Positions 1,765 to 14,268 of a DNA stretch of 64,000 nucleotides are shown here, piece by piece. Positions within the stretch are counted from its first letter, which is position 1. Every line of letters starts with the position of its first letter. This stretch comes from Syntrophorhabdaceae bacterium (GTDB lineage Bacteria > Desulfobacterota > Syntrophorhabdia > Syntrophorhabdales > Syntrophorhabdaceae): assembly GCA_963666485.2 (NCBI GenBank), contig CAXXUO010000003.1, positions 192,001 to 256,000 on the forward strand. Reading direction: 5' to 3'. The notes below the pieces were generated by a model, which was not told the origin of the DNA, ran no database searches, and saw only the letters and a list, made by a program, of their open reading frames with translations. The translations under genes and the position numbers were made by a program.

Positions 1765-2449
1765 TGGCTGTAGGTTTCTTCACCCAGGGCATAGAATTCA
1801 CATTACCTCACCCACAAATCCCACCACGTACCATCCTGCTTCTCTGTAAAGTAATCCACAAGGCATGGCAGCTTCTTAAAGAGAATCCTCCCGACGATTT
1901 TGTTTTACAGTCGGCAGATGAAGATAGAATTACCCAAGTGATGGTGGAAATCATTGAAAACCGCCTGCGAAGACACGGTGAAGTTGATGGATTTGACTGT
2001 GGACGGTTTGGTAGGGTGAGCCGCGAACCTAAGATTACAAACTTTGACAAGAAACATCCCGATAAGATGCCCGACATATTTTTCGATCTAAAAAGGGATC
2101 AATATGCAGTCCTCAGTGATCAAGATGGACTTTTTGTGGAATGCAAGCCCGTTGATAATGGACACCCGATTCTATCTTGTTATTGCCAAAAGGGATTGGT
2201 ACGGTTTGTCAAAGGCGACTACGCCTGGGCCATGCAGGATGCTATGATGGTTGGCTATGTTACGGAGGATTATTCATTTGAAAAGCTCACATCTATCCTT
2301 GATGATAGACAAAAAAGTGTATTATTGAGGACAAGTAGCCATCGCAACACGCCGTTTACCTTTCAAACCACAAAAGAGAGTTCGAATGGCTGGAGAGTCA
2401 TGGCCAAGCATGCCCTATATCGATAACACACCTTTGGTTGCCACTGTAA
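1764..2449 (+). CDS. Putative PD-(D/E)xK nuclease coupled to the methylase, with a frameshift near the 3' end
   Basis: The ATG overlaps the upstream stop (TGATG). Motif MPDIFF...FVECK is followed by GLVRFVKGDYAWAM. An alternative frame from about 2349 reads HAVYLSNHKREF...ISITHLWLPL* (stop 2447-2449), a more plausible C-terminus than the ORF-track end at 2426. Confidence 0.55.
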
Positions 2450-2624
2450 TTTCCAGTCTGGAAACGATGCTTATAGGGACTTAGGTTTGTCCTATTTAGC
2501 GCAACCGCTTCCATAAATCCTATTCAAACTGTTAGAAAGGGGGCCTATCCAAATACAATAGTGCGAAATAGTGCCGATAGCTTCTTGAACCCTTTGATAG
2601 TCAATGGTTTACAGCCTATAAAGC

Positions 2625-2652
2625 TGGGTTCGATTCCCATGCACTTCCGCCA
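2625..2652 (+). other. selC: 3' fragment of tRNA-Sec (T-arm, acceptor strand, GCCA) serving as an att direct repeat; not a complete tRNA
   Basis: TGGGTTCGATTCCCATGCACTTCCGCCA has a T-loop (TTCGATT) and an acceptor end CTTCCGCCA as in bacterial selC. There is no D-arm or anticodon arm upstream. An integrase C-terminus ends 16 nt downstream, and AATAGTGC is repeated at 2557 and 2567. Confidence 0.75.
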
Positions 2653-2668
2653 TTTATTGTTGAAATCA

Positions 2669-2960
2669 TTAGGATTTGTTCTTGTGTTTTCCCGCTAATT
2701 CACGCTGAGATTTAAGGGAAACCACTTTGGGGGTTCTTTCGAGGATGGCCCTTCTCGCGGATGCCTCTATCTTCCCATAAGGCTTCACGCTGTCCAGTCG
2801 CGCCCAATCGCCGGCCATTTGAAGATCATATATGCTATATCCCTCTTCGTTGATTAGCTGAGAGGCGGTAGAATGTTTTGTCCCATGGTAAAGGTTTATA
2901 TCCTCGCCTACGGCCTTACAGGCGGTATGCCAGAGGGTGCTGAGAGTCTTGTGGGTAGAA
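2669..2960 (-). pseudogene. Tyrosine recombinase/integrase C-terminal remnant
   Basis: LYHGTKHSTASQL...DLQMAGDWARLDSVKPY resembles the box II HxxR(K)H...LG(H/W)...Y motif. The N-terminus is missing and the gene points toward the selC fragment. Confidence 0.7.
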
Positions 2961-3100
2961 AGCCTACAAAGTGGAACCACGGTTCCGGTTTCGGTTCCTG
3001 AACGTGTTATCCGACCCTTAACCAAAATCAAAGACCCCGAAGAACAAAAAGAGATCTACCAAAAGGCGGTCGAAACAGCACCGAGGGGGAGGGTAACAGC
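2950..3100 (+). pseudogene. Fragment of a phage/MGE DNA-binding protein
   Basis: QSGTTVPVSVPERVIRPLTKIKDPEEQKEIYQKAVETAPRGRVTA resembles the ERxxRPL...PEEQ...AVE.AP.GKVTA segment of phage proteins. It has no start of its own. Confidence 0.45.
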
Positions 3101-3751
3101 GATCTTCCAATCTTCGACCAATTGATTAAGAGTAAATTGGTCGCTGATTTCAAGGATGGAGCAAAAATTATATGGAGGTTCGTTTTTGCGTAGGGCTGGC
3201 TTTCCGTGAATAAAGGGGTAGGAGGGTGTCCAGGGGAAGATTCTTTTTTGATTGTCTAGGTATCGTTTAGGGATCCCCTCCCTTCTGAGATGCATGAAAG
3301 ATACGGCGTTGTGGATAACTTGTCTGCAATTTGCGGACATGCCTATTTTGGATACTGTACCCATTCCTAAGACGAAATATTATCATTTATGTGAACATGG
3401 TCGGGGTATGCGGGCCCCACGGGGAGTTCCTTTTCGTATTCAGAGGTATGGAGGGTGTCTGGAAGAAAAGAATTTTTCTTTCAACGGTCATTCGTATAGG
3501 TCCGCGACAACAGATTCTACTGGGAACGTTACGGCACGTATTGAGGAGTACTGCAAAGGGAAGTAAACGGGCATACACAAACTGAGTATCCGCTGATGCC
3601 GAGAATACGTCCCGATTCTCCTGGATGCTATTGTCCTTAAGAGGGTGGGAAGATGGAAGTGATTTCCAAAAAAATGGTCCAATTAAATGGGGCTCTAGCG
3701 CAGTTGTTGAAGACTTTGAATATACACAGATGAAAGCGTCAGGCAGAGCAA

Positions 3752-6700
3752 CTACGCGTCAAGCACCTTCCGAACCCTCAGAAGCAACTCGTTGACTGAA
3801 AGTGGTTTGGATATGAAATCGAAACTTCCGTCTTCAATCCCTTTATCAAGGACTATGTCTCGGGTGTATCCGCTGGTAAAGATCACCTTGATGCGAGGGT
3901 TCATTCCATGCATCTCTTCATAAGTCTCACGCCCGTTCTTTCTGGGCATTACGGAATCAAGGATGACGAGATCTATACCCGGGTGCTGTCTGAACTTCTC
4001 TATTGCGTCTTCACCATCAACCGATTCAATAGTCTTGTAGCCGTATCTGTCAAGCATATCCCGAATAAGAGTCCTCACAGGTTCATCGTCTTCAGCAATA
4101 AGGATTATCTCATTTCCCGTTACAACTGCAACCGATTCATCTTCTTTTTGATCTACCGCTGCATTGACCGAAGGAAGATAGATGCGGAAGGTGGTTCCAC
4201 GTCCTGGCTCGCTGTAGACGTTGACAAATCCGTTGTGCTGTTTGACTATACCGTAGACGGTGGCAAGACCGAGGCCCGTACCTTTTCCAGTTTCTTTGGT
4301 GGTAAAGAAAGGATCGAAAATCTTCTCAAGAATAGTTTCGTTCATCCCGACGCCCGTATCTGAGATACTTATCAGCACGTACCTCCCCGGATCTCCGTAT
4401 CCGTGCGCATCAACGAATCCTGAGTCGATATTGGCGATGGACGTTTCGATAACGATCATCCCGCCTTTCGGCATGGCGTCCCGCGCATTGGCCGCAAGAT
4501 TGAAGAGGACCTGGTCGATCTGTGACCTGTCTGCCATGACAATGGTATCTTCCCGGGTAAGGTTCATGCACAGTTCGATGTCTTCCGTCAGCAGCCTCTT
4601 GAGCAGTTTCTGCGTCGCCTCTATCGTCTCGTTTATGTTAAGAGAGACAAGGTCAACGGGCTGCTTCCTGCTGAACGTCAGCAGGTTCTGGGTAAGGTCA
4701 GCCGCTTTCTGGGAAGCGAGGATGATCTGGTCTACATATGGTTTCAGGGAACTGTCGCTCTTCGCTTTCATCTGTACGAGGGTGGCGTATCCCATGAGAG
4801 CGGTGAGGATATTATTGAAGTCATGTGCTATGCCGCCAGCCAGAGTCCCCACAGACTCCATCTTCTGGGCGTGGCGGAGACTTGACTCAAGATGCCTCAA
4901 TTGGGTAATGTCCTCGCAGGTTACCAGATAATCACGGGAAGCAATTAGAGAACTGCTAAAACTAACAATCTTCTGCGTTCCATCCTTGCAGGTGATGGTG
5001 AATATCCTCTTGTTCTGCGTTCCGGGCTTGATGTTTTCCACGTCTTCCGCCCAGACCGACATGACATTTCTCCTGTAGGACTCGTTCGGAAATGCTTTGC
5101 TGAACCACGTCTCGTTATCGGGGACATCGGACAGATAATAGCCGAAAAGTTCGGTGAACTTGTCATTGATATAGGTAATCTTCCCCTCGTCATTGACAAG
5201 AACCATCCCGAAGGGGGCACTGTCAGAAAGGGTCCGCAGCCTCTCCCTCTCTCTGGCGATCTCTTCCTGGGCCAGTCTGCGCTCGGTAATGTCCACACAG
5301 ATACCTTCGTAATAGAGGACTTTCCCGGATGAATCGAAGGCGGCCCGTGAATTGACTGAGACCCAGAATTTCGTATGGTCCTTACGGTATATCTGGGTCT
5401 CAAAATCAACTGCTGTCCCTTGTTTCCCTATTGTTTCTGTAAATCGTTCCCGTTCCTCGGGGTCCACGTAATGCTGTTGTTTGATATCGGTGATACTTGA
5501 GATCATCTCTTCGGGGGATTCATAGCCGCACATCTTTGCCATCGTAGGATTGACGTCGATGAACCGCCCTTCCGGCGCTGACTGGAAAATGCCTTCTACG
5601 GCATTCTCAAAGATATTCCTGTATTTTTGCTCGCTCTTAACCAGTGCGGCCTCTTTTTCCTTTATATCTGTGATATCATGTCCTTCCGCACTCAGGTAGA
5701 CGATCTCCCCTGTTTCGTTCCTTGACGGTCTGAGGGGAAAAATCAATCTGACGGATAACGCCGTCTCCACTGACATGGGTTGTTTCGAATCCTACAGACT
5801 TGCCCTTGGATACCTTTATTATGGCATCTCTCACTCTGTCCTGCTCCCTTCGTGAATGAGACCACCAGGGCGTTTCCCAGAACGGTTTTTCCGATCACGT
5901 CGGATTCGGTTTGCCCGACAAAATCAAGGGCTACCTTGTTCGCGATCACGACCCTGCCTTCAGTGTCCAGAAGCCCCATGAACTGAAAAGTCTGGTCAAA
6001 AACAGTGTTCAGCATCTCTTCGGAAGCGCGAAGCCGCATCTCAGCTCTCTTGCGTTCCGTAATGTCGCTCGCGCAACCCTGGAACCCGATGATCTTGCCG
6101 GCGTCATCCGTCAAGGGCACAGCGTTCGTAACATGCCAGCGGCATGAGCCGTCAGCATGGCAGAACACGGTATTCGATACCCGTTTGCCGCTCGCCCGTT
6201 TCAATCGTCGTCTTCAGGAAAGCTTCATACTTTTCAACATCTTCTGGATGGACGAACTGATGGAAGGACTTTCCGGCAGCCTCACGTGCAGGGTATCCGA
6301 TGAGCAGATCAAAGCTTGGTGAGACAAAAGTGAAGATTCCTTCGGGGGTAAGGGTATAGCGGACATCGTGGCTGTTCTCGACGAGCAAACGGTATTTCTC
6401 TTCACTGCTCCTGATATCCGCTTCCGTGGTTTTCTGCTCAATAAGCTTGCCCAGCCTTCGCGCTATGGCGTCAATGAGGTTTCTTTCTTCTTTCAGAAAT
6501 GGGTCCTCGGCGCATGTAAGCATATCCTCAAGATAGAATGTTTCAACGGCGCCGATAAGCTTTTCCCGGGATATGATACTGGCGGCAAGTTTGGAGGAGG
6601 TTTCCTTGAAGTTGTCTGTCCTGAATTCCTGGATTCCGTAGATGATACGGCTGCAGGCAACGTCGGAATGCTGCCGGGCCCCGGGGCAGGAGATTTACGA

Positions 6701-6929
6701 TACCTTGAAGGACCTCATCCAGGGTAATGCGAGGTTCATTAACAATGCTTGCTATCCCGTAAAGACAACTAAGTTCCTTTGCACGCTCACGGAGATCATG
6801 TTCCTGTTTTCGAATTGTTTCTTTCAGACCATTAATCTCGGCTTGCAGCGCCTCAACGTTAGCGGGCCCGTTTCGCGTGACCTCGGGTTCGCCGATGGGC
6901 CGACTTTCGGTTTCATTCTTATTGTTCAT
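3752..6929 (-). pseudogene. Multi-PAS hybrid sensor histidine kinase (PAS repeats, HisKA, HATPase, REC) split by four frameshifts
   Basis: ORFs 6543-6929, 6152-6523, 5743-6204 and 3752-5776 join into one protein if single bases near 6683, 6165, 5888 and 5735 are removed (3174 nt, 1058 codons). Motifs include the H-box [13 protein letters not shown]-boxes DTGVG and GTGLGL, and a C-terminal receiver. Confidence 0.8.
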
Positions 6930-7539
6930 ATGAACAGTCTCATATATTTATCGGCTATATGATGGAAAGTATATACCCTTTCATTGCTTTTTGCACAAGC
7001 TGGTTATATCGGGGGAGATTTCTGAAAATTCCGCCCACTTTTTTGAGAAGCATTTTTGTACGGGAAGGAGACGGAAACCGGGGGAAAGAGCCCCGGCTGG
7101 AAATAGGGTGGCACCAGAGGCCTCACCGGGAAAAAATGCTTTCTAACGTGAACCTTGGACCAATTGGTTAAGAGCCAACTGCCGGACAATTTTCTATTGA
7201 AAGACCAAAAATTGTTGACACTTTTGTTTTTACGGACACAGTTCTTTGAAAAGGGGTATAGGGGGGTCCGGAGTAAGGATTCCTTTTTTTGCCATGAAGG
7301 GATCATATCGGGGGTGACGGTATCGACGGCAGATAATTTTCGTTTATGTGAATACGGTTGGGATAAACGGTCCCCCGTGGGGTTCCATTTGGTTTTCAGG
7401 GGTGTAGGGGGGGGTCGGTATAAAAGAATTCTTTTGGATGGATGGGTTTTTGTTTTGATGGATACGGACAGCATGACTGGGGTTAAAGTCTACCCACCCT
7501 GTTGTTGGTGGCATCGCTTCAAACGATACCGTTACCGAT

Positions 7540-7820
7540 ATCGGGGTTATTATCGACGATCAAGGCGAACCTTGGTGGGTAGCGAAGGATGTGTGTGAGG
7601 TTCTTGAGCTAAAGAACCACAAAAAAGCCGTCACCGCCCTCGATAAAGATGAGGTAACTTTAACTTACCTCATAGACTCTATAGGAAGGAGGCAAGAAAC
7701 CCTTATCATCAACGAGCCTGGCCTTTATCGCCTTATCATGCGGAGTCGGAAAAAAGAGGCTCTTGAATTTCAACGGTGGGTTTTTCATGAGGTTTTGCCT
7801 CAGATCAGGAGAACGGGGCA
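7540..7820 (+). pseudogene. BRO-N (phage antirepressor N-terminal) domain lacking its own start codon
   Basis: IGVIIDDQGEPWWVAKDVCEVL...INEPGLYRLIMRSRKKEALEFQRWVFHEVLPQIRRTG is a canonical BRO-N. There is an in-frame stop at 7474 and no ATG before the domain. Confidence 0.85.
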
Positions 7821-8145
7821 TTGGGGGTTTCCCCTTTTCCATCGTTTAAAACGATAGTATTTTTTTCGTCGGTATCGAGCCATGAAATAGTATCAAGGGT
7901 GTCAATCGGTTTGACCCCCTTCCATTGCTCTGGAACGTGGTTTGTCCTTGCGGATCTCTGTGCGATACTGGAGATAGGAAATCCCTCTGATGTTGCCAAA
8001 AGACCTGACCAGGATGACCTCGATACTGTCGAGGTCATAGACTCAATAGGGCGAAAACAAAGGGTAAATGCGGTAAATAAATTTGATGATGACGAAAAGG
8101 GTATAACTTCAAGTTACACCCTTGGCGGTGAACAAGATATGTTGG
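7820..8145. other. Array of four additional BRO-N internal fragments (two on each strand)
   Basis: Minus strand: HVPEQWKGVKPIDTL and ISWLDTDEKNTIVLNDGKGETPN. Plus strand: WFVLADLCAILEIGNPSDVAKRPDQDDLDTVEVIDSIGRKQRVNAVN and FDDDEKGITSSYTLGGEQDML. All map to the variable segment after the BRO-N LDxDE motif. Confidence 0.7.
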
Positions 8146-8159
8146 GCCAGCCATAGCGC

Positions 8160-8306
8160 TTAGTCTTCTTGGGGTTCCAGGTCGTTGATGAATCTCTCGA
8201 TCTCCGACTCTTTAAATAGCGTACGGCCCCCGAGCTTGACGTGTTTGATTTCGCCAGCCGACATGAGTCTATAAAGATTTGCTTTGGATATCTTTAATAA
8301 ACCCAT
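8160..8306 (-). CDS. Excisionase-like helix-turn-helix protein (HTH_17 type), 48 aa
   Basis: Manual translation MGLLKISKANLYRLMSAGEIKHVKLGGRTLFKESEIERFINDLEPQED. It is below the ORF-track cutoff and may be slightly 5'-eroded. Confidence 0.75.
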   Translation of the reverse strand: MGLLKISKANLYRLMSAGEIKHVKLGGRTLFKESEIERFINDLEPQED

Positions 8307-8342
8307 CGTATCGTTTATCAAGACATGGTCAGAGGAGACATC

Positions 8343-9026
8343 ATGGAAGGCAAGTTCATAGGCTATCTCAGGGTATCCACGACAAAGCAGGGAGATTCAG
8401 GGCTTGGTATTGAAGCACAACGTAAAGCAATGACCGATTACCTCAATGGGGGGAAGTGGAACCTCCTGAGGGAGTTTGTCGAGATTGAATCAGGCAAACG
8501 TGATGACAACAGACCAAAACTTAATGAGGCATTGCAGGCTTGCAAGAGGACTAAGGCAACTCTCTTGATAGCCAAGCTTGACCGACTCTCAAGGAATGTC
8601 ACCTTCATCTCATCCCTTATGGATTCCGACATTGAATTCGTAGCCTGTGATTTTCCCCATGCTAATAAGCTAACCGTCCATATATTGGCAGCAGTGGCGC
8701 AACATGAGCGTGAGATGATAAGCAAAAGAACGAAGGAAGCGTTGCAGGCAGCAAAGGCAAGGGGCGTTAAGCTTGGAAGCCCTGTAGGGTTGTCTGAGGA
8801 GGCTATAAAGAACGGTGTGCGGAAGTCTCGGGAGGTTAGGATAGCCAAGGCAAACGAGCACGCTGAAAGGATACATGGGATTATCAAAGGGTATCAGAGT
8901 GAAGGCCTGTCGCTACGTGCTGTTGCGCGGAAACTCACAGAGGAAGGCGAACTGACCCCAAGAGGGAAGGATTGCAAATGGACACCGACAACGGTCAAAA
9001 ACGTGTTGAAGAGAGTGGAGGAGTAA
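8343..9026 (+). CDS. Serine recombinase (resolvase catalytic domain plus short recombinase domain)
   Basis: Motifs YLRVST (catalytic Ser), AKLDRLSR, ERxMISKRTK and C-terminal TPRG..WTPTTVKNVL; AGGAG RBS upstream. Confidence 0.9.
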   Translation: MEGKFIGYLRVSTTKQGDSGLGIEAQRKAMTDYLNGGKWNLLREFVEIESGKRDDNRPKLNEALQACKRTKATLLIAKLDRLSRNVTFISSLMDSDIEFVACDFPHANKLTVHILAAVAQHEREMISKRTKEALQAAKARGVKLGSPVGLSEEAIKNGVRKSREVRIAKANEHAERIHGIIKGYQSEGLSLRAVARKLTEEGELTPRGKDCKWTPTTVKNVLKRVEE

Positions 9027-9229
9027 AATAGGAGCTTTCCTTCTTTCGTGTGGGAGCAGGCATCTGTTTTTTTGTAATACTCTTGACAATACTTGCACTG
9101 CACTCGTATCATCATGTTACACAATAAAGATTTGGGAAGTGTTATTAGGGCACAATGTGGTTTGGAGGGTATCATAGGTGTCATCGATTTTGTGGCTCCT
9201 CAGTGATTCTTTAATCTTTGGTTTTTCGA

Positions 9230-10009
9230 ATGAACGACAATAGAAAAAGCCCCAGCGGTAACACGTCACTTGTCTTGTATAATCAATCGAATGGTGTTTG
9301 TCCGATATGCGGTCGACCTTTGATGTATGAAAAAAGTGGCCGCAAGCACAAAGGTTTTCAAGCAGCGCATATATATCCTAATAGTCCAACGAAGGCAGAA
9401 GAGGAGCTCCTCAAGGATGAAGAACGATTAAGTTTAGATGTCAATCATGAGGCCAACTTAGTCCCGTTGTGCCTTGTTTGCCATGGAAGGTTTGACAAAC
9501 CACGCACAGTGCCTGAATACAGAGAGCTAGTGTCTGTAAAGAAAACACTGCAGAAGCAGGCAGAAGAAAGGGAATTGTGGTATGAATACAATCTTGAAAG
9601 CGATATTCGTCAGATTATTGAAACATTGAGTAATCTTGAAGAAACAGATGATGAATGTAAATCTCAATTTTCATATGATGTCAGGAAAGTTGACCAAAAA
9701 ACAGATGCTTCACTTTCCAACCTCACTAAACAAAAAATCAAAACCAATGTTCGTTATTATTTTAATGAGGTAAGGAAAACGTTTGCTGCCGTAGATTCAG
9801 AGAAGCTAAATACTGCTAATATCATCGCATCTCAAGTTAAGATATATTATTTAAAACAAAAGCAGAAAAAATTTAGCCAACAAGAAATATATGATAATTG
9901 CGTAAAATGGATTGATGCTAAGACAAAACATCGGTCTTCCGACGCGTGCGAAATCATTGTCTCGTTCTTTATACAGAATTGCGAGGTATTTGATGATAAC
10001 CCCAAGTAA
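9230..10009 (+). CDS. lmuA: Lamassu/ABC-three-component effector: HNH nuclease plus C-terminal domain
   Basis: HNH/Zn motifs CPICG...AAHIYP...NLVPLCLVCHGRFD. The C-terminus IIVSFFIQNCEVF is typical of ABC-3C CTDs. First gene of an overlapping three-gene operon. Confidence 0.8.
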   Translation: MNDNRKSPSGNTSLVLYNQSNGVCPICGRPLMYEKSGRKHKGFQAAHIYPNSPTKAEEELLKDEERLSLDVNHEANLVPLCLVCHGRFDKPRTVPEYRELVSVKKTLQKQAEERELWYEYNLESDIRQIIETLSNLEETDDECKSQFSYDVRKVDQKTDASLSNLTKQKIKTNVRYYFNEVRKTFAAVDSEKLNTANIIASQVKIYYLKQKQKKFSQQEIYDNCVKWIDAKTKHRSSDACEIIVSFFIQNCEVFDDNPK

Positions 10010-10235
10010 GTTCACTCCCTTAGAAAAATCCGTAATTTTCAAAATGATTTATCTATTGGAACCTGAATTTCACGGTAAGGAGATGAAAATCGTTGAATTG
10101 TATCGGAAGGTTGAAAAGAAATTTACTGGCATAGACGAATTCATATACTCAATTGATATTCTGTATATTCTAGGTTATGCCGATGTTGATTTTGCCAGAG
10201 GAGTGTTGAGGTATGCTCACAGAGATAATATGTGA
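9993..10235 (+). CDS. lmuC: Lamassu/ABC-three-component middle component (small wHTH-like), 80 aa
   Basis: MITPSKFTPLEKSVI...EFIYSIDILYILG matches the middle-component pattern. It overlaps both neighbours and has a GAGG RBS. Confidence 0.75.
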   Translation: MITPSKFTPLEKSVIFKMIYLLEPEFHGKEMKIVELYRKVEKKFTGIDEFIYSIDILYILGYADVDFARGVLRYAHRDNM

Positions 10236-11820
10236 TAAGTTCAGAACCAAGAAGATTACATTTCACGACAGCCTCAATGTGATTCTTGGGGACGAACGAG
10301 CAACTAATTCGATTGGCAAGTCAACCCTACTCATGATTATTGATTTCGTTTTTGGTGGTAAGACTCTGCTAACGTACAATATTGATATCATTAATGAACT
10401 AGGTCATCATGAGTATTGTTTTGCTTTCACATTTGGAGAAACAGTGCGTAAGTTTAAGCGGAGTACTCAGGATGGAGACTTGGTTTACCAGTGTGACGAA
10501 GACTATACTCCAGTAGACTCTATCAGATTGGACGATTATACTGCGTTACTAAAAACAATGTACGGAATTTCCCTGCCTTACCTGTCATTCAGAGCGGCGG
10601 TGAGTCTGTTTTCTAGAATCTGGGGTAAGGGTAATATAAACGTAACTAGACCGTTGCATGCAATTGCGGCTCAAAGGAGCCTTGATGCCGTAAACAATCT
10701 AATAAAATTGTTCAACGAGTATTCGTCAATAGAGAAATTAACCATAGATGCCAAGGATGCGGATGAGTCATTGTCGGTGCTTAAGAAAGCTCTTAAACGT
10801 TCATATTTACCCAGGATATCAAGTCGACAGTATAACGACAACGTTGAACTTATTAATAGATGCAACAATGAGTTGTCGGAGATTCGGGATAATTTGGCTA
10901 GATTCGCTACGAATATTAAGGAGATTTCAAATAGAGAACTTGTGGATTTGAAACAAAAGAAAGACGATTTGTTGCCCATAAAGCTAAAGCTGGAAAACAG
11001 ACTGAAACGAATTAAAAACAATCTAGACGAGGGAAAATATCTCAAAAGCAAACAGCTGTACAGATTAATGGAATTCTTTCCAAACATCAATATTAAAAGA
11101 CTCTCAGAGATTGAAGAATTTCATGCGGGGCTTAGTAAAATATTGAGGGACGAATTGCGAATTTCAGAAAAGAATCTTGCCCATCAGCTTGAAGACCTAA
11201 ATACTGCCCTTGACGGGATAGATAAAGAAATGGCGACCGTGCTATCATCGATAGACAATCCAAACGCTATCATTGATAGGGTCTATCATCTCACAAGCCT
11301 GATAAGGAGAGCTGAGAACGAGAATGGTCATTTTATTGAACGCGAAAAAGCACATGAACAAGCAGATGAATTACGCTCTCGGTTAAAAGGAGAAAGAACA
11401 GAAATTGTCTCATCCATCAGTGAACGACTGAATAGCAGAATGCGAGATATTACGTCGTTGGTTTATTCAGAGAAACGAAAAAGTCCTGTTCTCAAGTTGT
11501 CAGACGACAATTATGCATTTGAAGTGTATGAAGATACGGGTACTGGAAAGGCCTATTCTAACTTGGTTATTCTCGATTTAGCGGTATTGGAGATGACCGA
11601 GTTGCCTTTCCTCATTCACGATTCGCTTCTATTCAAAAATATCGAAAACAATGCAGTAAGCAATATCGTTCTAAGGTATGGAGACGAACAGAGACAGTCA
11701 TTCATTGCGATAGATGAAATTGGCAAATACGGTCAGATTATTTCTGATTATCTGAAACGAAAAAGTGTTATTGAACTGGACAATGATAACGTACTGTTCG
11801 TTAAAGATTGGAGGGTATGA
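10213..11820 (+). CDS. lmuB: Lamassu SMC-like ABC ATPase (DUF2326 type)
   Basis: Walker A NSIGKST, long central coiled coil, signature TGTGKAY, Walker B-like LIHDS and the C-terminal motif QSFIAID. Confidence 0.85.
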   Translation: MLTEIICDKFRTKKITFHDSLNVILGDERATNSIGKSTLLMIIDFVFGGKTLLTYNIDIINELGHHEYCFAFTFGETVRKFKRSTQDGDLVYQCDEDYTPVDSIRLDDYTALLKTMYGISLPYLSFRAAVSLFSRIWGKGNINVTRPLHAIAAQRSLDAVNNLIKLFNEYSSIEKLTIDAKDADESLSVLKKALKRSYLPRISSRQYNDNVELINRCNNELSEIRDNLARFATNIKEISNRELVDLKQKKDDLLPIKLKLENRLKRIKNNLDEGKYLKSKQLYRLMEFFPNINIKRLSEIEEFHAGLSKILRDELRISEKNLAHQLEDLNTALDGIDKEMATVLSSIDNPNAIIDRVYHLTSLIRRAENENGHFIEREKAHEQADELRSRLKGERTEIVSSISERLNSRMRDITSLVYSEKRKSPVLKLSDDNYAFEVYEDTGTGKAYSNLVILDLAVLEMTELPFLIHDSLLFKNIENNAVSNIVLRYGDEQRQSFIAIDEIGKYGQIISDYLKRKSVIELDNDNVLFVKDWRV

Positions 11821-11912
11821 CCTTAGCCAAGGACACCAGAAAGTTAGGACTACGGCAATCCACCGATGGTTAACGTTCGGAACAATAATCTTGATGAAGG
11901 GATAAGGAAATT

Positions 11913-12764
11913 ATGAAGTCTACACGAAATGATGCGGATACCGTTAAGACGGTCGACAAGAGGTGGATATACGTGTCGTTTTCATGCGTAACTCTTCTCT
12001 GGGCAGCATCTTTATTGCTTATTCCGATATTCAAAGAGCACAATGAACGAGGCGCTTTCGGAGATATGTTTGGGGCAGTTAACGCTCTTTTTTCTGGTCT
12101 TGCCTTCGCTGGAATTATCATTAGTATTCTTCTGCAGAATAAGGAACTCAAGTTGCAGCGCGAGGAACTTGAACAAACAAGAGATGAACTGAAAGGTCAA
12201 AAGGAACAGCTCCAAAATCAAAATCTGACCATGAATCGACAAAGATTTGAAAATACTTTTTTTCAGTTACTCCGTAATCACCGAGATATCGTTAACAGCA
12301 TGGACATCAGGCGTAAGACTGAAGTCATATCAGCAGGTTCTGATTGTTTCAAGACATTCTATTCCGAATTCCTCAGCAGAACAGGCCCAACAAGTGACAT
12401 CGAGAGTGTATTAGGGGCATATTTAGAATTCTACTGGAAAAGGCAACAGGATTTAGGGCACTATTTCAGGAACCTGTATCACGTAGTTAGGTTTATAGAC
12501 GATTCGAAAGATATAGATAACGAAGAAAGATTCCTTTACTCACGTCTATTAAGGGCATTATTATCAAGTAATGAATTGGTGTTGCTTTTCTACAATGGTC
12601 TTAGCAAATTCGGAAGAGACAGTTTTAAGCCGTTAATCGAGAAGTATTCGCTTTTGAAAAATATGGAGGATTCATTATTAATATCTATGGCCCATAGGAA
12701 AGAATACAGTAAATTTGCCTTTGCGAGCTCCAGAGAACGAGCTGAATGGGGCAATGGCTCGTAG
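11913..12764 (+). CDS. Putative phage abortive infection protein (putAbiC-like) with N-terminal membrane helices
   Basis: Motifs GAFGDMFGAVNALFSGLAF, QRFENTFFQLL, LGHYFRNLYH, LRALLSSNELVLLFYNGL and FKPLIEKYSLL. Confidence 0.75.
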   Translation: MKSTRNDADTVKTVDKRWIYVSFSCVTLLWAASLLLIPIFKEHNERGAFGDMFGAVNALFSGLAFAGIIISILLQNKELKLQREELEQTRDELKGQKEQLQNQNLTMNRQRFENTFFQLLRNHRDIVNSMDIRRKTEVISAGSDCFKTFYSEFLSRTGPTSDIESVLGAYLEFYWKRQQDLGHYFRNLYHVVRFIDDSKDIDNEERFLYSRLLRALLSSNELVLLFYNGLSKFGRDSFKPLIEKYSLLKNMEDSLLISMAHRKEYSKFAFASSRERAEWGNGS

Positions 12765-12909: not shown

Positions 12910-14268
12910 GATAACGTAAAATATTTTTCGCACATTTAAGAGCCATGGCAACCTCGAATCTGGTAGTGTTAAGCACCACACAAAACAAAAACCAGAGGGA
13001 GGAAGAACCATGGCCCAGAAAGAGTCTACCACAGAAGGCGGCACGATAATCCAGATTAATGAGGCGCAGATAAAGGACCACCTGGGAGAGATCGTAAGGG
13101 GAACGGTGCAGGAGACGCTCAATGCACTTCTCGATGAAGAGGCGTCCCGCCTGTGCAACGCACAGAGGTACGAGCGCACGGAGGAACGCAGGGACACACG
13201 GGCGGGCCATTATACCCGAACCCTCCAGACGAAGGCGGGGGAGGTGGACATCAAGATGCCCAAGCTGAGGTCGCTTCCCTTCGAGACCGCGATCATCGAA
13301 CGGTACAAAAGAAGGGAATCATCCGTGGAAGAGGCCCTCGTCGAGATGTACCTGGCCGGGGTGTCGGTAAGGAGGGTCGAGGACATCACGGAGGCCCTCT
13401 GGGGCACGAAGGTGAGCCCCGGCACCGTCTCGAACCTCAACGCAAAGATATACACCACGATCGAGCAGTGGAGATTAAGCCCCATCGAAGGTGAGCATCC
13501 CTACGTCTACCTCGACGGGATAGCGCTCAAGAGGACCTGGGGCGGGGAGGTCAGGAGCGTATCGGTCCTTGTAGCGATAGGGGTGAACCGCGAAGGCTAC
13601 CGGGAGATCCTGGGTGTGGCCGAGGGTGCGCGGGAGGACAAGGACAGCTGGACATCCTTCCTGCGCTACCTCAAAGAGCGCGGGCTCAAGGGTGTGGAGC
13701 TCTTCATATCCGACAAGTGCCTGGGCCTCGTCGAGAGTCTCGCCCTGTTCTACCCCGACGCCTCATGGCAGAGGTGCGTTGTCCACTTCTACCGGAACGT
13801 GTTCACCGTCGTGCCCAGGGGGAAGATCAAGGAGGTCGTCGCCATGCTCACGGCGATCCATGCCCAGGAGGACAGGAAAGAAGCGCAGAAGAAAGCGGAG
13901 GCGGTGGTGAAGAAGCTCAAGGAGATGAAACTCGGCAGGGCCGCGGACATGCTGAACGAGGGGATCCACGAGACGCTCGGCTATTACGGGTTCCCCCGCG
14001 AGCACTGGAGGAGGATCAGGACCAACAACCCCCTGGAGCGGATCATGAAGGAGATCAGACGGCGCACACGGGTCGTCGGGTCGTTCCCTGACGGCAGGTC
14101 GGCACTCATGCTCGTGGCTGCCCGGCTAAGGCACATAGCGGGAACCAAATGGGGAATGAGCCAGTACCTGAAAATGGACCGGCTTGAGCAGGAGATCATC
14201 GAGAGCATTAAGGCATAACCGGATTAGTGGGGTTGCTATGGAAAGTGCGAAAGATTCTTGACACTATC
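12910..14268 (+). mobile_element. IS256-family insertion sequence
   Basis: Imperfect terminal inverted repeats (18/24 identity: GATAACGTAAAATATTTTTCGCAC versus the reverse complement of the right end). An 8-bp TSD AAGGTGGT lies at 12902-12909 and 14269-14276. GC is higher than in the flanks. Confidence 0.92.
13010..14218 (+). CDS. IS256-family (Mutator) DDE transposase
   Basis: Motifs YLAGVSVRRVEDI, YVYLDG, FISD, WQRCVVHFYRN and RTNNPLERIMKEIRRRT; intact 402-aa ORF. Confidence 0.95.
   Translation: MAQKESTTEGGTIIQINEAQIKDHLGEIVRGTVQETLNALLDEEASRLCNAQRYERTEERRDTRAGHYTRTLQTKAGEVDIKMPKLRSLPFETAIIERYKRRESSVEEALVEMYLAGVSVRRVEDITEALWGTKVSPGTVSNLNAKIYTTIEQWRLSPIEGEHPYVYLDGIALKRTWGGEVRSVSVLVAIGVNREGYREILGVAEGAREDKDSWTSFLRYLKERGLKGVELFISDKCLGLVESLALFYPDASWQRCVVHFYRNVFTVVPRGKIKEVVAMLTAIHAQEDRKEAQKKAEAVVKKLKEMKLGRAADMLNEGIHETLGYYGFPREHWRRIRTNNPLERIMKEIRRRTRVVGSFPDGRSALMLVAARLRHIAGTKWGMSQYLKMDRLEQEIIESIKA

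Follow-up and report, generated by a model that had tools for sequence, protein, structure and literature searches.

The window analysed here is a 64,000-nucleotide stretch of the genome of a Syntrophorhabdaceae bacterium. Within it, five pieces of different bro genes lie end to end with short overlaps, and each of them covers a palindrome, hereafter called the box. What are these boxes, and how did the pieces come to lie together? The preliminary description of this DNA took the array for a reservoir, or scar, of cassettes that swap the specificity segment of a DNA-binding protein, with the palindrome doubling as a recombination site or as the operator recognised by the residues it encodes. 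Of this interpretation, the operator role is the best reading of the palindromes and a scar or collection fits the locus, whereas the specificity cassettes, the recombination sites and the donor reservoir are not borne out.

Five bro pieces and their palindromes in the window

The five pieces have the orientations +, -, -, + and + (Table 1). As had been described, the array begins with a headless Bro-N domain: the fragment 7525-7857 has no start before the domain and scores 93.5 bits against PF02498, above the curated cut-off of 25.6. Four further Bro-N fragments in mixed orientation had also been proposed, and these are confirmed by a weak Pfam match of ORF 7821-8156 (piece 4; 16.8 bits, below the cut-off) together with DNA similarity to bro genes. 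The DNA matches of the pieces other than fragment 7525-7857 have E values of 1e-10 to 0.33, and pieces 2, 3 and 5, which are too short for the profile, are assigned by DNA similarity. The matches of neighbouring pieces overlap by 11 bp (7931-7941) and by 14 bp (8068-8081). One junction abuts the edge of a box.

Table 1. Features of the array and its immediate surroundings. Box scores are symmetric pairs among pairs 3-13 of an odd-centred 27-mer.
Feature	Position	Strand	Evidence and remarks
tRNA-Lys(CTT) fragment left of the array, likely attachment-site scar	7150..7182	-	31/33 identity to the genome's tRNA-Lys
Possible sixth, decayed box (weak)	7507..7533, centre 7520	.	half-sites ATCG/ATCG
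Piece 1, headless Bro-N domain without C-terminal partner domain	7540..7857	+	PF02498 E 1.3e-26; DNA match from 7541
Recognition-helix codons NHKKA of piece 1	7615..7629	+	predict half-site GT[A/C]A; AlphaFold model, code tables
Box 1, codes first wing strand of piece 1	7648..7674, centre 7661	.	half-sites GTAAC/GTAAG; 9/11
Piece 2 (DEKNT..NDG class)	7821..7894	-	blastn E 2e-6 to L138
Box 2, in piece 2	7835-7861, centre 7848		half-sites ATCG/ATCG; 7/11
Piece 3 (HVPEQWKG..DTL), without helix codons	7895..7941	-	weak blastn, E 0.33
Box 3, in piece 3	7895-7921, centre 7908		half-sites GTCA/GTCA; 10/11
Piece 4, N-terminal half of Bro-N domain	7931..8081	+	Pfam E 0.011; blastn E 9e-9
Helix NPSDV codons of piece 4	7980-7994	+	
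Box 4, in piece 4	8013-8039, centre 8026		half-sites CTCG/CTCG; 10/11
Piece 5 (DDDEKG..TLGG class), in-frame with piece 4	8068..8144	+	blastn E 1e-10
Box 5, in piece 5	8097-8123, centre 8110		half-sites ATAA/GTAA; 10/11
Excisionase-like HTH_17 gene, points into the array	8160..8321	-	Pfam E 7e-12; PHROG 66
Small serine recombinase (resolvase/invertase type)	8343..9026	+	PF00239 E 2e-29; PHROG 125; context only, unlinked to the boxes

The palindromes reported in the preliminary description are all present. Four of the five in the array are strong and one, box 2, is moderate, with perfect inner 5-bp arms. The additional palindrome at 7524-7543 is also found, but it is even-centred and lies outside the register of the family; a weak candidate box of the family type, centred on 7520, has a weighted symmetry of 8.1, under the cut of 8.5. 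In the whole genome, 993 palindromes score at least 9/11 in 3.77 Mb, so that 0.12 are expected per 460 bp. The Poisson probability of finding at least four of them in one 460-bp interval, as here, is 8e-6 per interval for approximately 8,200 intervals, and only one other cluster of four occurs in the genome, on C4 (one tandem repeat set aside). The "arm classes" (ATGA..TCAT and AAGGG..CCCTT) into which the palindromes had been sorted are in fact backbone classes, common to unrelated bro genes.

The excisionase (HTH_17), the serine recombinase and the integrase remnant that had been noted around the array are all present. The element around the locus is decayed and satellite-like, and the pieces lie in its Bro zone, next to the first two of these genes. 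According to the accessible text of PMC10111431, satellite zones comprise an HTH_17 excisionase adjoining a dynamic Bro zone of domain-swapping genes. The same domain and the same order of excisionase and Bro zone as in the satellite Bro network (PF02498; accessible parts of PMC10111431 and PMC9043618) are found here, and a PICI-like integration zone with HTH_17/AlpA stands beside the Bro zone. In contrast to the satellites described in that part of PMC10111431, the recombinase is of the serine rather than the tyrosine type, and neither a primase nor a C4/IsrK immunity RNA was found (Pfam on 15 ORFs; Rfam on 2400-9300). The Rfam scan of 2400-9300 gave no match at all, and a scan for intact tRNA genes found nothing. 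The array contains no promoter match and no intact bro gene lies downstream of it.

Bro-N matches in the genome are confined to the array locus, apart from one sub-threshold Pfam match on C1. No close relative of the array locus was found: 18 of 61 genomes match some part of the whole locus, mostly the tRNA fragment, and the only other bro patchwork among the 61 is that of G014.

A copy of the 3' end of tRNA-Sec at 2625-2652 (28/28) adjoins the integrase remnant, and tRNA-Lys(CTT) fragments lie at 3116-3133 and 7150-7182; the tRNA-Sec and tRNA-Lys fragments are probably attachment-site scars of an accreted island. A non-coding motif of 75-100 bp, a G-rich run ending in a AAAAGAATTCTTTT-type palindrome, occurs at 3379-3477, 7253-7287 and 7332-7435. 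The same motif, possibly the end motif of an element family, is found in 3 of 68 family genomes (L006, L410-L414); tRNA fragments, a resolvase or an ORF6N gene frequently lie nearby. On the other side of the array, the low-G+C region 9218-12764 encodes an ABC-three-component defence system (HNH-CTD11, MC7, ATPase/DUF2326) and a putative AbiC gene, followed at 13010-14218 by an ORF of 402 aa that resembles an IS256-type transposase, as judged from its sequence. At position 6683, inside the split sensor-kinase frames 5743-6929, the Logan contigs of runs X1 and X2 are one base shorter, possibly owing to an assembly error.

Palindromes and recognition helices across the Bro-N family

The palindromes of the locus are not peculiar to it but belong to the Bro-N family. 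The first unrelated phage bro genes examined have a palindrome at the same codons, and statistics on a Bro-N gene set gathered from viral contigs and genomes show that in most phage Bro-N genes the first wing strand is encoded by an odd-centred palindrome of 27 bp. For 116 anchored domains of <85% identity (15 of 131 were dropped as they lack the anchor motifs), the best wing-zone palindrome averages 8.78/11, compared with 6.61 in synonymous-codon shuffles and 6.51 in an equal control zone; scores of at least 9/11 are reached in 70/116 wing zones and 0/116 control zones. In the enlarged set (177 anchored domains of 231, with 54 dropped for the same reason), this level is reached by 80 of 143 domains of the LDxDE type and 7 of 34 of the remaining types, versus 0/143 and 0/34 control zones. 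Thus, palindromicity at the codons after LDxDE, the check that the preliminary description had put forward, is far above the codon-shuffled controls family-wide.

The box sequences vary widely among genes yet keep their symmetry. The mode of the box score in the family is 8-9, and 91 of 100 boxes are centred on the middle base of a codon. Odd-centred boxes outnumber even-centred ones by 107 to 2 among 200, in rows that were themselves chosen by odd score. The 5-bp centre of the box is 78% A+T, and the host domains are 51% G+C. Among giant-virus-like genes, the box inside the gene is degenerate in several (4 of 7 score 7.2-9.0 on the weighted scale). A box is also found at the wing codons of a cellular Bro-N group of approximately 280 aa (KGWGQIVTPL type; L079, L080, L083, L057).

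In the AlphaFold model of piece 1 (pLDDT 89.9), the chain is predicted to form a helix-turn-helix followed by a hairpin: helix 1 spans 14-21, helix 2 spans 26-31 and is capped by Asn25, and the hairpin spans 38-56, its first strand being encoded by box 1. In fold comparisons the model has weak matches, namely DdrC (Z 7.0, rmsd 3.8, 80 aligned), Dachshund (Z 6.0) and Mbp1 (Z 4.5), which hint at a winged helix like that of KilA-N/APSES; Foldseek against the PDB gave no match at E<=0.001. The domain of a relative, L130, was modelled as a homodimer joined through its C-terminal helices, with an ipSAE of 0.66 (best of three controls, 0.00), agreement of the runs in 100% of contacts and a pLDDT of at least 89. 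An ipSAE of 0.66 is reached by 20 of 30 solved homodimers and by 1 of 23 single chains, and the model supports dimerisation of the Bro-N domain.

The inner arms of the box track three residues of the recognition helix, which are encoded approximately 40 nt upstream (Asn with T, Arg/Lys with G, and Asp with G·C). Mutual information in 201 genes, evaluated by permutation within backbone class, links helix position 1 to pairs 5 and 6 (z 16 and 18), position 3 to pair 7 (z 14) and position 4 to pair 4 (z 27). A single residue two before the helix also covaries (z 15), and the rest of the domain stays at or below approximately 8. In the same 201 genes no covariation with the helix is seen for the outer arms (pairs 9-13), whose symmetry the helix code does not explain. 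The code tables are limited to genes whose box is recognisable: one of 231 rows failed the anchor, and 29 of the other 230 were left out with a weighted symmetry <8.5. With the row of the window excluded, Asn1 goes with T in 236/256 half-sites, Asp4 with G in 95/102 and Lys3 with G in 30/30; Arg3 goes with G in 100/114 and Gln4 with T in 30/42. Read on the appropriate strand, these pairings correspond to well-known protein-DNA contacts: Asn-A, Gln-A, Asp-C and Arg/Lys-G.

When the base was predicted from one residue after training on the other backbone classes, 115 of 160 predictions (baseline 47) and 121 of 183 (baseline 75) were correct; prediction from helix position 1 was barely above the baseline (140/182 vs 134/182). 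Genes found later fit the code as well: TIRS goes with GTGC, NTRN with GTCC and NASQ with AT[A/C]T. A tree-based test of independent pairs, on a tree built from the remaining 58 columns, is underpowered; it gave five supported pairs and none opposing on average (p 0.06). Statistically, the family has a symmetric site with half-sites approximately 10 bp apart whose bases follow the recognition-helix residues.

Both helices in the locus match their own boxes, NHKK with GTAA and NPSD with CTCG. The left arm GTAAC of box 1 recurs in all four other N-x-[KR]-K genes, and N-x-[ST]-D genes have arms resembling box 4. The three boxes without a helix each fit one of the two locus helices, a post hoc comparison in which 30 of 200 library boxes do the same.

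Taken on sequence grounds, the box is most likely the operator of the Bro-N protein whose gene contains it. The earlier proposal of an operator read by the residues it encodes thus stands as to the operator but not as to its reader, which would be the helix upstream. Likewise, the palindrome-encoded residues do not qualify as the specificity segment, since a given half-site can be written in more than one peptide and frame, and its bases vary together with helix residues that lie beyond the palindrome. A Bro-N dimer very probably binds the box in double-stranded DNA, where it would contact two 5-bp half-sites one helical turn apart, separated by an AT-rich 5-bp spacer. The half-sites would be read by positions 1, 3 and 4 of helix 2 in an almost one-residue-one-base code. 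A bro allele would then carry its operator beside its specificity codons, and both would travel together through phage recombination. We infer that such a self-operator probably serves autoregulation without cross-talk between co-resident elements.

Box banks and the origin of the array

Trimmed arrays of boxes recur in unrelated phages and plasmid-like elements. In L242, a unit of 7.7 kb that encodes ParA, HTH_17 and a primase-helicase, 12 boxes lie in the 550 bp before a headless Bro-N (background density, 1.6 per 500 bp), and three of them are close to its own core; one box of this bank resembles that of the cellular KGWGQIVTPL-type group. In L529, five boxes of different specificities occupy the 260 bp directly upstream of an intact antirepressor (bro) gene. 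L205 contains tandem headless pieces like those in the window, one of which shares a perfect tract of approximately 66 bp with an intact gene 1.8 kb away while its helix differs; this suggests that the tract was copied from the intact gene into the array. In L220, free boxes lie between four Bro-N domains and a resolvase. A search with a two-box pattern found free-standing tandem boxes in 37 viral stretches, 23 of them distinct; at the offsets that the pattern leaves free, 23-29 of 41 boxes are symmetric, and nine of the two-box sequence groups have a Bro-N match within 1.5 kb. Four matches (L505, L518, L530 and L533) were rejected because they resemble G/C-run repeats rather than boxes, and a second tandem pattern was uninformative, its 7 stretches being single in-gene boxes or ambiguous.

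On average, extra boxes are not enriched near bro genes (0.02-0.15 per kb, compared with 0.09 in this genome), and such banks are therefore the exception. Similarly, exact copies of a gene's own core are not enriched elsewhere within up to 10 kb (6 observed, 3.8 expected, at 4 of 75 loci), which implies that the main target may be the gene itself. In addition, low-G+C, giant-virus-like long Bro-N genes (L502, L504, L510, L513, L525, L526) have two or three free boxes just upstream, which in L502 and L510 partly match the gene's own helix. In L501 and L519 (about 1250-1750), runs of 5-7 closely spaced palindromes, each different from the others, lie between genes, and no Bro-N match occurs within 1.5 kb of them.

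For the locus as a whole, we lean towards a captured bank of Bro-N operators. Short-homology recombination may have captured the pieces from bro genes that passed through, and they may have been retained because their boxes bind Bro-N proteins; autoregulation, capture and retention are all inferred steps. The locus would then be an early, untrimmed and now probably decaying operator bank, acting as a sensor of Bro proteins or a decoy for them. A broader proposal is offered tentatively: Bro-N, which extends from phages to giant viruses, may be a DNA-binding family with a natural capacity for reprogramming, in which each allele writes its own operator in the wing codons and three helix residues set the specificity. 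Mobile elements might keep ordered banks of foreign operators as a memory with which to sense or soak up the regulators of rivals, and the locus might be such a bank before trimming.

The strongest competitor to a captured bank accepts the boxes as Bro-N operators family-wide but regards the locus as a functionless wreck of several bro genes, left by elements that had integrated in tandem and trimmed by microhomology deletions. The setting agrees with this: the island is a remnant, with tRNA-Sec and two tRNA-Lys fragments, an integrase remnant and three copies of the non-coding motif; the flanks of the array are decayed by substitutions and a frameshift, and the array lacks a promoter match. 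In the bro patchwork of G014 (L022), decay has gone further and most of the box symmetry is lost. Neutral deletion, on the other hand, normally removes palindromes and does not keep them. All five pieces cover the box, including three of only 50-75 bp, and the scores of four boxes (9-10/11) equal or exceed the family mode. Trimmed banks in other elements also speak against a neutral scar, which we consider rather unlikely.

A different view concerns the box itself, which might act as a hairpin or cruciform, that is, an RNA structure or a single-stranded DNA signal for a nuclease or recombinase, with the helix covariation arising from co-inheritance or helix-wing contacts. Such a structure would suit a symmetry that extends over 13 pairs, including outer arms that are unlinked to the helix and persist in non-coding copies; the low power of the tree test also leaves it room. 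Within the arms, however, G-T mismatches are at their chance share (31/189) with no G-U bias, which argues against an RNA stem, and purine-purine mismatches are many. Pairs 4, 6, 10 and 11 are nearly invariant (symmetry 0.96-0.99), whereas pairs 2, 3 and 8 are weakly kept (approximately 0.6). The same half-site tracks the same helix across frames and wing peptides, and Rfam offers no match. A hairpin is therefore improbable as the function of the box.

The idea that silent cassettes swap the Bro specificity segment, crossing over at the palindromes through the action of the neighbouring serine recombinase, is largely refuted, and we regard it as very improbable. Shufflons, invertons and silent-cassette conversion systems do combine several variants of a gene piece, in both orientations, with a nearby recombinase, and all three traits are found here. 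The recombinase matches an invertase PHROG, the multi-bro locus L220 has a resolvase alongside, and Bifidobacterium bro genes that are almost identical elsewhere diverge here. The perfect tract in L205 also indicates that copies exchange, but the box there fits the helix of the full gene and not that of the fragment, which points to copying into the fragment. Sites of serine recombinases have a 2-bp core. The five sites here are odd-centred and all different, without the repeated, near-identical crossover site of shufflons and invertons, and no junction falls inside a box. The recombinase is not linked to the array in relatives: its closest relative, L415 (89% identical), has a different gene upstream and no array, and no box cluster was found at 83 recombinase loci, most of them distant (80 metagenome and 3 order-level). 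Finally, a donor reservoir would require an expressed full-length recipient, as in silent-cassette conversion. A family search and tblastn with 300 Bro-N domains found no full-length bro gene in this 99%-complete genome, and helix codons are missing from three of the five pieces.

A chimeric assembly of several bro genes, to which the patchwork appearance might point, is hardly credible, since single contigs of X1 and X2 each cover 6500-9600 in one piece at even depth with no joints listed, which argues against misassembly (the three runs containing this stretch come from one sample, possibly the source sample, so that this contig support is not independent), and since the pieces are decayed and joined by short overlaps and similar patchworks exist in unrelated genomes. 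The same contigs, which drop rare variants, contain no joints for alternative orders or orientations of the pieces.

Relation to known systems

In the accessible parts of PMC9043618, PMC8096241 and PMC10111431, Bro-N appears as a putative or predicted DNA-binding, domain-swapping module, and no target site is named. An in-gene palindrome, a Bro-N binding site and arrays of fragments are absent from these parts of the Bro-network papers, and the string "palindrom" occurs 0 times in the accessible text of PMC10111431. The literature searched, mostly open papers without supplements, yielded no account of either a palindrome inside Bro-N genes or arrays of boxes; the Bro-segment supplement of PMC10111431 may bear on the novelty. 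The accessible text of the same paper describes the P4 CI RNA/seqA inside the Bro-network gene eta, where it acts by RNA-RNA pairing. Both cases are regulatory elements embedded in Bro-network coding sequence; the Bro box differs from the P4 element described there in having no RNA signature and in covarying with a protein helix.

The closest functional parallels to a Bro-N self-operator would be lambdoid repressors and the controllers of restriction-modification systems with their C-boxes. In these, as in the plan proposed here, a dimer sits on a palindrome whose AT-rich centre separates half-sites spaced by one turn, and specificity likewise diversifies through recognition-helix residues. 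The putative Bro operator differs from both in lying inside the codons of its own DNA-binding domain, so that it must also encode the wing, and boxes of foreign specificity are gathered in arrays only in the Bro case. Among these parallels, the lambdoid immunity repressors are autoregulated dimeric HTH proteins with variant operators.

If the operator reading is right, nearly every Bro-N member would have a predicted site readable from its own gene, and the residue-to-base code could be tested with a handful of oligonucleotides. A self-operator would explain the hypervariable middle of antirepressor genes and would show coding sequence under double selection, for the protein wing and for the operator. 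Operator banks would suggest that phages and satellites also compete at a level not described so far, and orthogonal regulators could be derived from so small a dimeric domain with its simple code.

A Rha-domain fragment in L205 (about 8780-8917) has a palindrome of its own around conserved Asn-Phe codons. Other domains of the Bro network, such as Rha, may thus carry self-sites too.
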